A DNA stretch of 64,000 nucleotides from Escherichia coli (GCF_001677475.2 NZ_CP015229.1), one strand, 5' to 3'. Numbered from the stretch's first letter, positions 45,409-50,040 are shown. Numbers and translations: made by a program. Notes: generated by a model from the letters alone, not told the origin.

Positions 45409-45921
45409 ATGCTTACAATGATATTTAACCGCCTGAAACTTGCGGTAGACCGCGTCATTGCCGCGTTTTCTGTCGCCGTAATGCTTGCTCTGGTTGTATG
45501 CGTAGTCTGGCAAGTATTTAGCCGCTACGTACTTAACCAGCCAAGTACATTAACCGATGAGCTGGCACGCTTTTTGATGATCTGGGTAGGATTATTAGGT
45601 GCTGCATATACCGTCGGCGCGCAGAGACATCTCTCTATCGATTTATTTGCTCTCGCCCTGAATAAGCGCAAGCAATTACTTCTTAGTATAGTCATTAACG
45701 TTCTTATTTTAGGTTTTGCCGGTTCGGTCATTGTGACTGGTGGCCTGAAATTAATTGATAAAACACTGGCAACATCACAGGTATCTGCCGCGATGCAAAT
45801 ACCGATGGGATACGTATATATCATTCTGCCATTAAGTGGATTGGTGATGATGTTTTATGCCTTGTGTTTTATTAATCAAAGCATTCAACAACTGAAACAA
45901 CCTGCGCAGGAGGCCAGTTAA
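45409..45921 (+). CDS. TRAP transporter small permease (DctQ family)
   Basis: 170-aa four-helix membrane protein between the DctP-like and DctM-like genes. Confidence 0.7.
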   Translation: MLTMIFNRLKLAVDRVIAAFSVAVMLALVVCVVWQVFSRYVLNQPSTLTDELARFLMIWVGLLGAAYTVGAQRHLSIDLFALALNKRKQLLLSIVINVLILGFAGSVIVTGGLKLIDKTLATSQVSAAMQIPMGYVYIILPLSGLVMMFYALCFINQSIQQLKQPAQEAS

Positions 45922-46511
45922 TGGATAGTTATATCGCGCTTACACTGTTTGGCTGTTTTTTTGTGCTGGTCTTTATTGGTGTGCCCATTTCGTTCTCAAT
46001 CGGTATTGCCACTGTAGCTTCAATGCTGTTGATGTTTCCCTGGGATATCGCGGCAATCACTGTTTCGCAGCGACTGGCTAATGGACTGGATAACTTTGCC
46101 CTATTGGCAATCCCCTTTTTCATCTTTGCCGGAACGCTGATGAACAGCGGCGGTATTGCGATACGTTTGATTAACCTCGCCCAGGTAATGGTTGGCCGCG
46201 TTCCTGGTTCGCTTGGTCATGTGAACGTCCTGGCGAATATGATGTTTGGTTCCATTTCTGGTTCAGCCGTTGCGGCAGCTGCTGCCGTTGGTGGCACACT
46301 GAATCCCATTCAGACCAAAGAAGGTTATGATCCGGCATTTTCTACCGCTGTAAACGTCTCATCCTGTATTACTGGATTACTGATACCGCCCTCAAACGTG
46401 TTAATTGTGTTTTCCCTGACAGCTGGCGGCGTTTCTGTAGCATCGCTATTTATGGCGGGATATTTGCCAGGGATCTTAATGGGTCTCGCGGTAATGGTTG
46501 TCTGCGCGTAA
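45921..46511 (+). pseudogene. TRAP transporter large permease (DctM family), N-terminal fragment cut by IS66 insertion
   Basis: Only ~196 codons of a normally ~430-aa permease; the frame runs into the IS66 left inverted repeat and stops at a TAA inside it (46509-46511). Confidence 0.7.
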
Positions 46512-46592
46512 GCGTAAACCGACCGCCGTATGTAGCCATTAGACAAGAATTGGTAACTTAGACGCCCATCTGACACAGACGGACATCTAAGT

Positions 46593-47012
46593 ATGGAATT
46601 ACAGGACTGGCGAAAAGAACCTCGTAAAAAGTATTCGAATGAATTCAAACTTCGTATGGTTGAACTGGCATCACAACCCGGTGCTTGTGTGGCTCAGATT
46701 GCACGAGAAAATGGCGTCAATGATAATGTTATTTTCAAATGGCTCAGACTCTGGCAAAACGAAGGGCGTATATCACGGCGTCTTCCGGTGACAACCACTT
46801 CTGATGCAGGCCTTGAATTATTACCTGTAGAGATAACCTCTGATGAGCCGAAAGAACCGATGGCTGCTCTTACTCCGCCCTTATCCACTCAGACTACTGT
46901 CAGTGCCAGCTCCTGCAAGGTGGAGTTCCGTCACGGTAACATGACGCTGGAAAATCCTTCACCAGAGCTGCTCACTGTATTGATTCGTGAACTGACCGGG
47001 AGGGGAAGATGA
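46593..47012 (+). CDS. IS66-family accessory protein (orf1, HTH)
   Basis: 139-aa first ORF of the IS66 triplet. Confidence 0.75.
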   Translation: MELQDWRKEPRKKYSNEFKLRMVELASQPGACVAQIARENGVNDNVIFKWLRLWQNEGRISRRLPVTTTSDAGLELLPVEITSDEPKEPMAALTPPLSTQTTVSASSCKVEFRHGNMTLENPSPELLTVLIRELTGRGR

Positions 47013-47359
47013 TCTCACTCCCATCCGGTACCCGTATCTGGCTCGTTGCCGGGATAACCGATATGCGTAAGTCTTTCAACGGGCTGGGTGAACAGGTACA
47101 GCATGTGTTAAATGTTAATCCCTTCTCCGGTCACCTGTTTATCTTCCGTGGCCGACGGGGTGACACCGTTAAAATTCTTTGGGCTGATGCTGATGGTCTG
47201 TGCCTGTTCACCAAACGCCTGGAGGAAGGCCAGTTTATCTGGCCTGCGGTGCGTGACGGTAAGGTATCCATTACCCGCTCGCAACTGGCAATGCTCCTCG
47301 ATAAGCTGGACTGGCGTCAGCCAAAAACATCCCGCCTTAACGCCCTGACAATGTTGTAA
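47009..47359 (+). CDS. IS66-family accessory protein (orf2)
   Basis: 116-aa ORF overlapping orf1 by 4 bp. Confidence 0.75.
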   Translation: MISLPSGTRIWLVAGITDMRKSFNGLGEQVQHVLNVNPFSGHLFIFRGRRGDTVKILWADADGLCLFTKRLEEGQFIWPAVRDGKVSITRSQLAMLLDKLDWRQPKTSRLNALTML

Positions 47360-47389
47360 AAAACGCCTGGCCGCATTATAAAAACGGCC

Positions 47390-48982
47390 ATGAGTCAGAA
47401 ATACCTCATTCGCATTGCAGAACTGGAAAGCCAGCTCCGTCAGAAAGACCAGCAACTGAGTCTGGTTGAAGAGACGGAGGCCTTCCTGCGCTCTGCACTG
47501 GCACGTGCCGAAGAAAAGATCGAAGAAGATGAACGGGAAATAGAACATCTGCGGGCTCAGATAGAAAAACTGCGCCGGATGCTGTTCGGTACCCGTTCTG
47601 AAAAACTGCGTCGTGAAGTTGAACAGGCTGAGGCCCTGCTGAAACAACGCGAACAGGACAGCGATCGTTACAGTGGGCGGGAAGACGATCCACAGGTTCC
47701 CCGCCAGTTGCGACAGTCGCGCCATCGTCGTCCGTTACCGGCACACCTTCCCCGTGAAATACACCGTCTGGAGTCTGAAGAAAGTTGTTGCCCGGAATGT
47801 GGCGGCGAGCTGGATTATCTGGGGGAAGTCAGTACTGAGCAGCTGGAACTGGTGAGCAGCGCCCTGAAAGTGATCCGCACAGAACGGGTAAAAAAAGCCT
47901 GTACAAAATGTGACTGCATCATTGAAGCACCGGCGCCGTCCCGCCCGATAGAGCGTGGTATCGCGGGCCCCGGATTACTTGCCCGCGTGTTAACGGGAAA
48001 ATACTGCGAACACCTGCCACTGTATCGTCAGAGTGAAATCTTTGCCCGACAGGGTGTCGAACTGAGCCGTGCATTACTCTCCAACTGGGTTGACGCGTGC
48101 TGCCAGTTAATGATGCCGCTGAATGATGCCCTGTACCGTTATGTGATGAATACCCGCAAGCTTCACACTGACGACACACCGGTAAAGGTACTGGCACCGG
48201 GCTTGAAAAAGACGAAAACAGGGCGCATCTGGACGTATGTCCGGGATGATCGCAATGCGGGTTCGTCATCTCCTCCGGCGGTCTGGTTCGCGTACTCACC
48301 GAACCGGCAGGGGAAACACCCGGAGCAACACCTCCGCCCCTTCCGGGGTATCCTGCAGGCGGATGCGTTCACAGGTTATGACAGGCTGTTCAGTGCAGAA
48401 CGTGAAGGTGGTGCGCTGACAGAAGTTGCGTGCTGGGCCCATGCCCGGAGAAAAATCCACGATGTATACATCAGCAGCAAAAGTGCGACGGCAGAAGAAG
48501 CCCTGAAGCGAATCAGTGAACTGTACGCCATCGAGGATGAAATACGGGGATTACCAGAGTCAGAGCGTCTTGCAGTCAGACAGCAGCGAAGCAAAGCGTT
48601 ACTGACGTCGCTGCATGAATGGATGGTGGAGAAGAATGGCACGCTGTCGAAAAAATCCAGACTGGGCGAAGCGTTCAGCTATGTACTGAATCAGTGGGAC
48701 GCCCTCTGTTATTACAGTGATGACGGACTGGCGGAGACGGACAATAACACAGCGGAAAGAGCGCTTCGTGCAGTCTGTCTTGGAAAGAAAAATTACGTGT
48801 TCTTCGGTAGCGATCACGGTGGCGAGCGTGGTGCACTGCTATACGGGCTGATCGGCACCTGCCGTCTGAACGGTATCGATCCGGAAGCGTATCTGCGCCA
48901 TATTCTGAGCGTACTGCCGGAATGGCCCTCCAACCGTGTTGACGAACTCCTGCCATGGAACGTGGTTCTCACCAATAAATAA
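47390..48982 (+). CDS. IS66-family transposase (orf3)
   Basis: 530-aa ORF with N-terminal coiled coil, CxxC zinc region and DDE-type core. Confidence 0.8.
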   Translation: MSQKYLIRIAELESQLRQKDQQLSLVEETEAFLRSALARAEEKIEEDEREIEHLRAQIEKLRRMLFGTRSEKLRREVEQAEALLKQREQDSDRYSGREDDPQVPRQLRQSRHRRPLPAHLPREIHRLESEESCCPECGGELDYLGEVSTEQLELVSSALKVIRTERVKKACTKCDCIIEAPAPSRPIERGIAGPGLLARVLTGKYCEHLPLYRQSEIFARQGVELSRALLSNWVDACCQLMMPLNDALYRYVMNTRKLHTDDTPVKVLAPGLKKTKTGRIWTYVRDDRNAGSSSPPAVWFAYSPNRQGKHPEQHLRPFRGILQADAFTGYDRLFSAEREGGALTEVACWAHARRKIHDVYISSKSATAEEALKRISELYAIEDEIRGLPESERLAVRQQRSKALLTSLHEWMVEKNGTLSKKSRLGEAFSYVLNQWDALCYYSDDGLAETDNNTAERALRAVCLGKKNYVFFGSDHGGERGALLYGLIGTCRLNGIDPEAYLRHILSVLPEWPSNRVDELLPWNVVLTNK

Positions 48983-49012
48983 GCGTCAATACGGTGCTCC
49001 GTTGACGCTTAC

Positions 49013-49624
49013 GGCCAGCGATACATACTGAGAACCTTTATCACTGTGATGGATTGTGCCGGACGGCCGACGGGCCCACAACGCCTGCTCCAGTGCATCC
49101 AGCACGAATGTTGTTTCCATGGATGATGAGACCTGCCATCCCACGATGTATCCGGCGAACACATCAATGATGAACGCCACATAAACGAAGCCCTGCCATG
49201 TGCTTACCCAGGTAAAATCAGCCACCCACAACTGGTCTGGACGTTCTGCCACGAACTGACGGTTTACGCGGTCGCATGCGGCAACGGCTTTCCGGCTGAC
49301 GGTAGTGCGGACCTTTTTACCCCGGAGAACACCGGCAAGTCCCATAACTGCCATGAGACGTGCCACAGTGCATCTGGCCACTCTGATACCTTCCCGTAAC
49401 AACTGACGCCAGACTTTACGCACACCGTATACCTGGTGATTTTCATCGTATACGCGCTGTATCTCTTTCTTCAGCCAGTCATCGTGCTGCGCACGGGCAC
49501 TGCGTTTATCCGGATGATGTCGCTGTTGCTGACAATGGTAATACGTTGACGGGGCAATATGCAGTTCGCTGCATACCGGTCCGACCCCGTACTGCTCACG
49601 CAGCTTATCCAGCAGTGGCATCAT
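49013..49624 (-). pseudogene. IS3-family transposase OrfB, 3'-truncated
   Basis: About 200 of ~296 expected codons; the frame terminates inside the abutting IS66 sequence. Confidence 0.7.
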
Positions 49625-49947
49625 TTTTTCCAGAGGCGGTCGAACTCCGCCTTCGCAAAATAAGCGGAAGCCTGGCGAAGGATATCGTTACTGCGGCGCA
49701 GTTCACGATTTTCACGTTCCAGCTCTTTCAGACGCTGACGTTCAGCGCTGGTGAGCCCACCATCACCGCCCCCGGTATCCCGCTCATGCTGGCGAACCCA
49801 GACACGCAGAGTCTCCGGCGTACAGCCAATCTTTGGGGCAATGGAACAAATTGCCGCCCACTGTGAGTCATATTCATCCTGACTTTCCAGAACCATACGA
49901 ATCGCCCGCTGACGGACTTCGGGGGAAAAACGAGTATTTTTAGTCAT
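49621..49947 (-). CDS. IS3-family transposase OrfA (IS629-like)
   Basis: 108-aa HTH/leucine-zipper OrfA starting [22 protein letters not shown]. Confidence 0.8.
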
Positions 49948-50040
49948 CCTGTTTACCTCTTTCTCAGGGAGTTTAGTCTCCAGGATTTCCGGGGCGGTTC
50001 AGAGCAGCAACTCAGGGCGCTGCTGACACCCTCACCGGAT

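Follow-up and report, generated by a model that had tools for sequence, protein, structure and literature searches.

A dctM gene split by an IS66-family element at one joint of a probable 29-kb inversion beside pheV in Escherichia coli

Insertion sequences of the IS66 family normally duplicate 8 bp of their target (PMC6778807). Homologous recombination between IS66 copies that leaves mismatched flanking duplications has been documented in Agrobacterium (PMC6778807), and inversion between inverted repeats has been documented in E. coli O157:H7 (PMC7430833). In two reports on IS26 (PMC4471558, PMC10501869), intramolecular inversion leaves the original copy and an inverted second one, with the duplication split between the two joints. 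The locus described here, in a 64,000-nt stretch of E. coli DNA (NZ_CP015229.1; hereafter the window), very probably belongs with the inversions. As in the inversions between inverted IS or prophage repeats of E. coli and Shigella, identical inverted repeats would bound the flipped segment, each repeat would carry one flank from each original site, the duplications would be swapped and nothing would be lost. The present segment differs from these inversions in being small (29 kb), confined to one replichore arm and located beside pheV. The Agrobacterium case, unlike this one, involved direct repeats and ended in deletion, and the repeats in O157 were prophages rather than IS66 copies. The IS26 products have the same end structure as ours; that pathway is not known to be established for the IS66 family, and nothing at this locus favors it over recombination. 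The rearrangement is an ordinary IS-driven event.

The IS66-family element is complete (Table 1). Its tnpA-tnpB-tnpC order with a DDE-type TnpC, its inverted repeats starting with GTAAGCG and its 8-bp target duplication are those of the family, and the NCBIfam model NF033517 (transpos_IS66) scored 447 bits (cutoff 180). The same genes, repeats and 8-bp duplication are found in the ISEc8/ISEc22/ISEc23-like elements of E. coli. The duplication at the dctM site is different. It is 7 bp rather than the usual 8 bp, which counts against the explanation that we prefer below. The ends of the element were identical in five other copies. An E. coli plasmid carries a full-length copy with 100% identity, and matches to the element of at least 99% identity occur in 136 records. 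PGAP labels such elements "IS66 family transposase". The ISEc23 copy beside vasL in strain 10 was considered as the same element and rejected; it occupies a different position and is only 93% identical, so the window copy is a distinct isoform. We also considered whether the C at 46507 is the first base of the element. It is not: the relatives have GCC at that codon and the IS copies start with GTAAGCG.

Table 1. Features of the dctPQM-IS66-IS629 region, in window coordinates.
Feature	Position	Strand	Basis
dctP, TRAP solute-binding subunit, intact	44387..45373	+	Pfam DctP 6.5e-82; TIGR00787
dctQ, TRAP small permease, intact	45409..45921	+	Pfam DctQ 3.5e-30
dctM 5′ half, nt 1-587 of 1302	45921..46507	+	Pfam DctM positions 1-186/413
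7-bp target duplication TCTGCGC, one copy, from IS66 insertion into dctM	46501..46507		
Complete IS66-family insertion sequence, 2505 bp	46508..49012	+	Inverted repeats; Pfam; NCBIfam
IS66 terminal inverted repeats, 24 nt, starting GTAAGCG	46508-46531 and 48989-49012		
IS66 tnpA	46593-47012	+	Pfam HTH_Tnp_1
IS66 tnpB	47009-47359	+	Pfam TnpB_IS66
IS66 tnpC, DDE transposase	47390-48982	+	Pfam DDE_Tnp_IS66 with zf-IS66, LZ and C-terminal domains
8-bp target duplication GGCCAGCG, one copy, from IS66 insertion into IS629 orfB	49013..49020		
Visible part of the probably inverted segment of ~29,034 bp	49013..64000		Extended by contigs L014 and L023, 100% identical
IS629-like IS3-family element, 5′ part, nt 1-989 of 1310	49013..50001	-	Pfam HTH_Tnp_1, HTH_21, rve
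ALIL frameshift pseudoknot	49550-49666	-	Rfam ALIL 121 bits
IS629-like orfA, intact	49621-49947	-	
IS629-like left inverted repeat	ends at 50001	-	
vasL C-terminal fragment, relic T6SS gene, split by IS629-like element	50002..50550	+	Pfam VasL

An initial annotation of the window had the DctM-like frame cut after about 196 codons by the left repeat of the IS66 element. This was borne out. Measured against close relatives in which the gene is whole, the window retains 195 codons plus 2 nt, and the joint lies at nt 587 of 1302. The retained part matches nt 1-587 of dctM without a mismatch in two relatives that have the intact gene (L021 and L022). The open frame spans 45921-46511 and its TAA stop sits within the IS66 element. 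In the comparison with genomes carrying an intact dctPQM, which the annotation had proposed, synteny with strain 1190, which has an intact hemW-dctPQM-yggM...pheV locus, ends exactly at 46506. The annotation also read the transporter as inactivated by the IS66-family insertion, provided that no complete dctM lay elsewhere in the window. No further dctM fragment was found by tblastn in the 64 kb, and the reading holds. DctP and DctQ are intact and the large subunit DctM is split, so the TRAP transporter is non-functional whichever route produced the inversion. The system is a pseudogenised member of the DctPQM type; the YiaMNO equivalog was excluded, YiaN scoring 296 bits where the cutoff is 800.

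On its right side, the IS66 element runs directly into the orfB of an IS629-like element, as the annotation had noted, with nt 1-989 of the latter abutting at 49013. We take this element to be IS629 from its length and ends; its PGAP label is only "IS3 family transposase". It carries orfA, orfB with the rve domain and the -1 frameshift signal (ALIL), as expected for IS629 and the IS3 family. The orfB is interrupted inside rve (Pfam positions 2-81 of 102 in the window), and the window holds no complete 1310-bp copy with both inverted repeats. The truncation is nevertheless a matter of the window only. In a close relative (L030), the missing 321 bp of the 3′ side adjoin an IS66 left end. This joint is documented from the relative GCA_018682865.1 only, which differs by one mismatch over the 8.8 kb of island that the two share. 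The window part and the L030 part together make exactly 1310 bp, aligned without gaps to an intact copy with two mismatches. Like IS629 (IS3 family, 1310 bp), the rebuilt element has TGAACCGCCCCGG inverted repeats, an orfA of 108 aa, an orfB of 296 aa and ALIL. The IS3 element was therefore split by IS66, with its other part very probably kept elsewhere in the genome, and the claim that it is truncated holds for the window only. The chimeric OrfB′ (212 aa) had no exact match among recorded proteins. The IS629-like element itself splits vasL, which encodes a VasL of 288 aa in relatives with an empty site (L015 and L028). An intact, identical copy of the element has a 3-bp duplication; at the vasL site the duplication is imperfect (GAA/GAG).

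The two flanks of the IS66 element in the window, GTCTGCGC on the left and GGCCAGCG on the right, differ and do not form a target-site duplication, as had been stated. Each of them has its partner beside another IS66 end. At the dctM site, the window reads GGTTGTCTGCGC followed by GTAAGCG, and the counterpart in a draft contig (L025) reads CGCTTAC followed by TCTGCGCCATT. The second copy of TCTGCGC thus lies outside the window, beside an IS66 right end, and the uninterrupted target in L021 and L022 is GGTTGTCTGCGCCATT. At the IS629 site, the window reads CGCTTAC followed by GGCCAGCGATAC, and L030 reads GTGTAGGCCAGCG followed by GTAAGCGTAAACC, which gives a perfect 8-bp duplication of GGCCAGCG. 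The mismatched flanks are the mark of a secondary rearrangement, as the annotation had supposed: the duplications pair across the two IS66 copies.

The annotation took this rearrangement to be an IS-mediated deletion in which the 3′ half of dctM was lost along with the 3′ part of the IS3 element and the sequence between them. In the window alone this is what one would read, as both interrupted units stop at IS66 and its flanks do not pair as a duplication. We consider it extremely improbable. GCA_002516285.1 still has nt 581-1302 of dctM, the 3′ half, which adjoins an IS66 right end and carries the matching duplication. This assembly has both dctM joints, the 5′ half against an IS66 left end (L003) and the 3′ half against a right end (L025), with an overlap of 7 bp, and the two halves rebuild the whole 1302-nt gene with no mismatches to the relatives. 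The IS629 3′ part is likewise kept against an IS66 left end with its perfect 8-bp duplication, as described above for the close relative. The genes from yggM to pheV are also present in assemblies of the same clone. That the rest of dctM or the 321 bp of the IS3 element was removed is not supported. Of the proposed sequential insertions followed by rearrangement, the insertions of IS629 into vasL, of IS66 into IS629 and of IS66 into dctM all stand; the rearrangement as a deletion does not.

The orientation of the island to the right of the joint also bears on this. From 50002 onward the window follows the pheV island of strain 10 colinearly (99.1%), running toward int-pheV. Relative to hemW and dctPQ the island is reversed, an orientation opposite to that in strains 10 and 1190. 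Drafts of the same clone, with 100% identity over 10.6-15 kb, extend the window through int, tRNA-Phe, yqgA and speC to yggM and the reverse complement of the dctM 3′ half. The full order beyond the window is int, tRNA-Phe (pheV), yqgA, speC, nupG, mltC, yggX, mutY, trmB, yggL, yggN, ansB, yggM and dctM 3′ half, the last lying inverted some 29 kb farther right, as read from drafts with 100% identity to the window. One contig (NJSK01000014.1) is 29,159 bp long, equal to the predicted segment of 29,034 bp plus 62 and 63 nt of IS66 ends. A deletion running from dctM to the pheV island cannot give an island reversed in this way; an inversion can. The same module of int, sulfatase and OMP genes is located at pheU in some strains. 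An island at pheU was ruled out by the 100% identical contigs running into tRNA-Phe, yqgA and speC; in that case a deletion would require the loss of about 1.3 Mb including oriC, given the positions of pheU and oriC on the K-12 map.

We therefore conclude that, very probably, two IS66 copies in opposite orientation bound an inverted segment of about 29 kb, that nothing was deleted, and that one of the two recombinant joints lies in the window. The sequences show all four junctions, the duplications at both sites, the exact reconstruction of both interrupted units and the reversed island; relative to the relatives the orientation is reversed, and flanks and duplications are swapped between two inverted copies. 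We propose the following history. An IS629-like element would have entered the relic vasL gene of the pheV genomic island, and an IS66 copy would then have entered its orfB, making the 8-bp duplication GGCCAGCG. The IS66-in-IS629 state persists in relatives with an intact dctM. In the clone of the window, a second IS66 copy, oriented the other way, would have entered dctM at a distance of 29 kb; it would have cut the gene at nt 587 and made the 7-bp duplication TCTGCGC. Finally, the two copies would have swapped flanks, flipping dctM3′-yggM-ansB-yggN-yggL-trmB-mutY-yggX-mltC-nupG-speC-yqgA-pheV-int-...-Shango-ibrAB-vasL′-IS629(5′). Such an exchange joins the dctM 5′ half to the IS66 left end and the IS629 5′ part to the right end. 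The far joint is predicted to consist of yggM, the reverse complement of dctM (nt 1302-581) ending in GCGCAGA, then GTAAGCGTCAACGG and a full reversed IS66; on its other side, GGTTTACGCTTAC would be followed by CGCTGGCC, the IS629 3′ 321 bp, vasL-N, ImpA′ and NERD helicase. From about 62-109 nt of its ends read in drafts, a full second IS66 copy can be expected at the far end.

The linkage across an IS66 element is contiguous at one joint in the window, and the related assemblies are short-read drafts broken at IS66, so the inverted linkage is seen in the window only. Neither the dctM-IS66 nor the IS66-IS629 joint of the window was contiguous in 5,426 complete E. coli genomes, so complete RefSeq genomes offer no independent closed genome for comparison. 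The joint of the IS66 right end with the dctM 3′ half had no matches among one-genome-per-species contigs. An assembly artefact could have misjoined the flanks of two simple insertions, one between the dctM halves and one between the IS629 parts, across the identical 2.5-kb repeat, the ancestral order being real. All four junctions are common to the inverted and non-inverted isomers, every related draft stops at IS66, and no independent contig spans the element, so that none shows the reciprocal joint across it. Yet the window is contiguous over 64 kb and two IS elements, which suggests long-read support, and the joint that it shows departs from the reference arrangement, so that ordering guided by a reference would presumably not have picked it. 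We regard the artefact as improbable.

How the flanks of the inverted segment came to be exchanged, by recombination or by one-step transposition, is a separate matter, and both routes yield the identical sequence, so that sequence does not tell them apart. In the first, insertion into dctM and inversion would be two events, the latter being RecA-type homologous recombination between the 2.5-kb inverted repeats. In the second, the island IS66 would have attacked dctM intramolecularly by inversion-type replicative transposition with an atypical 7-bp stagger, making a copy of itself and flipping the 29 kb between in one event, with no simple-insertion intermediate. Relatives that retain an intact dctM already carry the donor IS66 in IS629; the new copy lies close by in inverted orientation, and the product has exactly the flank pattern given for IS26 intramolecular inversion (PMC4471558, PMC10501869). 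On the other hand, four independent IS66 copies with the same ends are simple insertions with direct 8-bp duplications, and homologous recombination between repeats of 2.5 kb is a general process that suffices as an explanation. The mechanism of the IS66 family is poorly characterised, and we know of no demonstration to date of replicative or cointegrate transposition in it. The one-step route thus seems possible at a rather low probability, and we moderately favor insertion followed by homologous recombination. If true, the one-step route would be natural-history evidence for a cointegrate or Shapiro-type pathway in the IS66 family like that of IS26.

Before an IS with unlike flanks is taken for the scar of a deletion, its reciprocal flanks should be sought elsewhere in the genome. 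Here mutY, speC, ansB, pheV and the rest of the segment are kept and, on our reading, merely inverted. The paired joints with their 7-bp and 8-bp duplications could mark the lineage of this clone, whose isolates include GCA_002516285.1, GCA_033692315.1 and GCA_016118615.1. The truncated DctM occurs in at least eight public contigs. The dctPQM locus is accessory (1492 of 5426 complete E. coli genomes have it), and its loss is therefore unlikely to be of consequence.

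The TRAP transporter genes follow hemW in the E. coli chromosome stretch yggS-yggT-yggU-rdgB-hemW and are accessory, being present in 1492 of 5426 complete E. coli genomes. In strain 1190, whose locus is intact, the order is hemW-dctPQM-yggM-ansB-yggN-yggL-trmB-mutY-yggX-mltC-nupG-speC-yqgA-pheV-island. Synteny between the window and strain 1190 ends at 46506, and tblastn revealed no second dctM piece within the 64-kb window. The initial annotation had described, at 45921-50001, a cut DctM, an IS66 element, a cut IS3 element and unlike flanks, and all of this was borne out. The TRAP transporter is indeed inactivated by the IS66-family insertion, as had been claimed, with dctM cut off after 46507. 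Neither element is new, and both are common in E. coli. The 8-mers flanking IS66, GTCTGCGC and GGCCAGCG, show no relation to each other. In four independent copies of this IS66 element the ends were identical and the duplications 8 bp long, which confirms both the limits of the element and its usual stagger; an 8-bp stagger is also given for IS66 in PMC6778807. In the IS3-family part, orfA is intact, the ALIL frameshift pseudoknot is present and orfB is cut within the rve domain.

Coordinates of features in the window
Feature	Position	Strand	Details
Insertion between loiP and speB	25931-27730		1.8 kb
520-aa DUF1266 protein	26019-27581	minus	encoded in the loiP-speB insertion
dctP	44387-45373		after hemW
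dctQ	45409-45921		after dctP
DctM frame	starts 45921		Pfam DctM positions 1-186 of 413 only
IS66-family element	46508-49012		2505 bp; 24-nt inverted repeats starting GTAAGCG; tnpA, tnpB, tnpC
IS3-family element part	abuts IS66 right end at 49012; left inverted repeat at 50001	minus	989 bp
VasL C-terminal fragment	50002-50550		T6SS relic
IbrA-like and IbrB/ParB-like genes, then PerC-family regulator	51452-53655		PAPS-reductase/DUF3440, 410 aa; 212 aa
Shango system	54756-60580	minus	three genes
SngC (DEAD helicase)	54756-56954	minus	PADLOC E-value 4.6e-278
SngB (BrxD-like ATPase)	56951-58267	minus	PADLOC E-value 8.7e-187
SngA (TerB_N)	58271-60580	minus	PADLOC E-value 2.5e-99

Drafts of the same clone, 100% identical to the window, were found by exact-protein look-ups. 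NJSK01000012.1 (GCA_002516285.1) covers 35921-46569, stopping 62 nt into the IS66 left end. From the same assembly, NJSK01000014.1 was retrieved with a guessed 201-aa gene-caller product of the orphan dctM 3′ half. It begins with the IS66 right end abutting dctM (CCAATAAATAAGCGTCAATACGGTGCTCCGTTGACGCTTAC followed by TCTGCGCCATTATTGC). The window joint reads GGTTGTCTGCGC followed by GTAAGCG, and intact dctM in close relatives reads GGTTGTCTGCGCCATTATTGC. The window has nt 1-587 of dctM and the orphan contig nt 581-1302, each with 0 mismatches; the two halves thus make up the whole gene, with 7 bp (TCTGCGC) occurring in both as a target duplication (window 46501-46507; 63-69 of NJSK01000014.1). 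The length of this duplication is the one mildly unusual detail, as 8 bp is usual and was found at the IS629 site and in the four other copies.

The rest of the IS3-family (IS629-like) element was found in GCA_018682865.1, a close relative with 1 mismatch in 8.8 kb of shared island. Its 372-kb contig extends without a break from the helicase gene of the island past pheV to beyond mltC, which suggests that its dctM is intact. In this assembly, vasL-N is followed by TGAACCGCCCCGGG, the orfB C-terminal part and GTGTAGGCCAGCG, which meets GTAAGCGTAAACC and then 109 nt that match the IS66 left end of the window exactly. The right joint of the window reads CGCTTAC followed by GGCCAGCGATAC, which together with the relative's flank forms a perfect duplication of 8 bp. 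Joined, the IS3 parts come to exactly 1310 bp, gapless and with 2 mismatches against an intact copy in strain UTAK-1.

An IS-mediated deletion had been proposed to have removed the rest of dctM and part of the IS3 element. Right of 50002, the window shares 99.1% identity over 13.2 kb with the pheV island of strain 10, where vasL', ibrAB, Shango and int run into pheV, yqgA and speC. In the window, the vasL'-ibrAB-Shango block points toward pheV yet follows hemW-dctPQ, opposite to the normal layout. Had a deletion run from dctM into the island, the orientation would have been kept and the vasL-distal, not the pheV-proximal, island exposed; the layout predicts an inversion. ABOXPT010000044.1 (matching 49014-64000), DACZAV010000052.1 (49014-62022) and DACZAV010000051.1 carry the window on rightward through sulfatase, integrase, tRNA-Phe, yqgA, speC, nupG, mltC, yggX, mutY, trmB, yggL, yggN, ansB and yggM, after which comes the reverse complement of the dctM 3′ part, where the contig stops. 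As these drafts run into tRNA-Phe, yqgA and speC, the island is at pheV, and beyond it come the "missing" core genes, their order inverted. The deletion is refuted, both pieces having been found beside IS66 ends and the island reversed. A location at pheU was rejected because the same-clone contigs continue into pheV-side genes. The integrase/sulfatase/OMP module, whose 499-aa sulfatase-type protein is identical at both sites, occupies pheU in some E. coli and pheV in others (L004, L006, L011 and L013 versus L005, L007, L009 and L012); contigs from short reads are often broken at the tRNA for this reason.

Every "missing" piece adjoins the opposite end of an IS66 copy, from which we infer insertions followed by flank exchange. 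IS629 would first have entered vasL. The empty site is present in two relatives (L015 and L028), and the 3-bp duplication of IS629 is imperfect, with GAA on one side and GAG on the other side and in the empty site. IS66 would then have entered IS629, a state common to relatives, and later dctM, in opposite orientation and in the window's clone only; truncated DctM was found on at least 8 contigs versus 14 for the vasL-N::IS629 chimera. Finally, the two IS66 copies would have swapped flanks, inverting 29,034 bp. NJSK01000014.1 has 29,159 bp, equal to this segment plus 62 and 63 nt of IS66 ends. Homologous recombination between inverted repeats is the generic route, and we favour it, acting on the 2.5-kb repeats, as the likelier cause of the exchange. 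It is documented between IS66 copies (PMC6778807) and between inverted repeats in E. coli (PMC7430833). One-step intramolecular transposition of the inversion type, described for IS26 in PMC4471558 and PMC10501869, may instead have made the exchange, its sequence product being identical to that of recombination.

If the source assembly was misjoined across the repeat, the strain would instead carry two plain insertions, even more ordinary than an inversion. The inverted and non-inverted isomers share all four junctions, every related assembly is interrupted at IS66, and the linkage of dctM5′ to IS629/vasL-C across the element was seen in the window only. No closed genome of the window's clone was found on searching the window junctions in 5426 complete E. 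coli genomes and the joint of the IS66 right end with dctM3′ in one-genome-per-species contigs. As assembled, the window shows one of the joints of a small inversion bounded by IS copies beside pheV, a textbook phenomenon.

Rightward of the VasL fragment lie ibrAB-like genes, perC, the Shango defence operon, an outer-membrane protein and a sulfatase-type phosphoethanolamine transferase. The T6SS relics of the island are an ImpA_N fragment and VasL (also at 8622-9488 in L028 and 10482-10805 in the GCA_018682865.1 contig); vasL encodes 288 aa in the empty-site relatives and is split by the IS629-like element. The IbrA/IbrB-like/PerC module is found widely among islands at pheV and pheU, and 332 complete genomes carry at least 80% of 49900-56000. 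Shango is an anti-phage system, and its SngC helicase is truncated in some close relatives at the equivalent of window 55149, where their contigs end. The distal island past vasL-N (1-9600 of the GCA_018682865.1 contig) carries K88-type fimbrial genes and also encodes a NERD/UvrD helicase together with EAL-domain and T5orf172 proteins; the window's clone is expected to have this stretch on the far side of its second IS66 copy. Elsewhere in the window, the insertion between loiP and speB, as compared with strain 1190, is not an IS.
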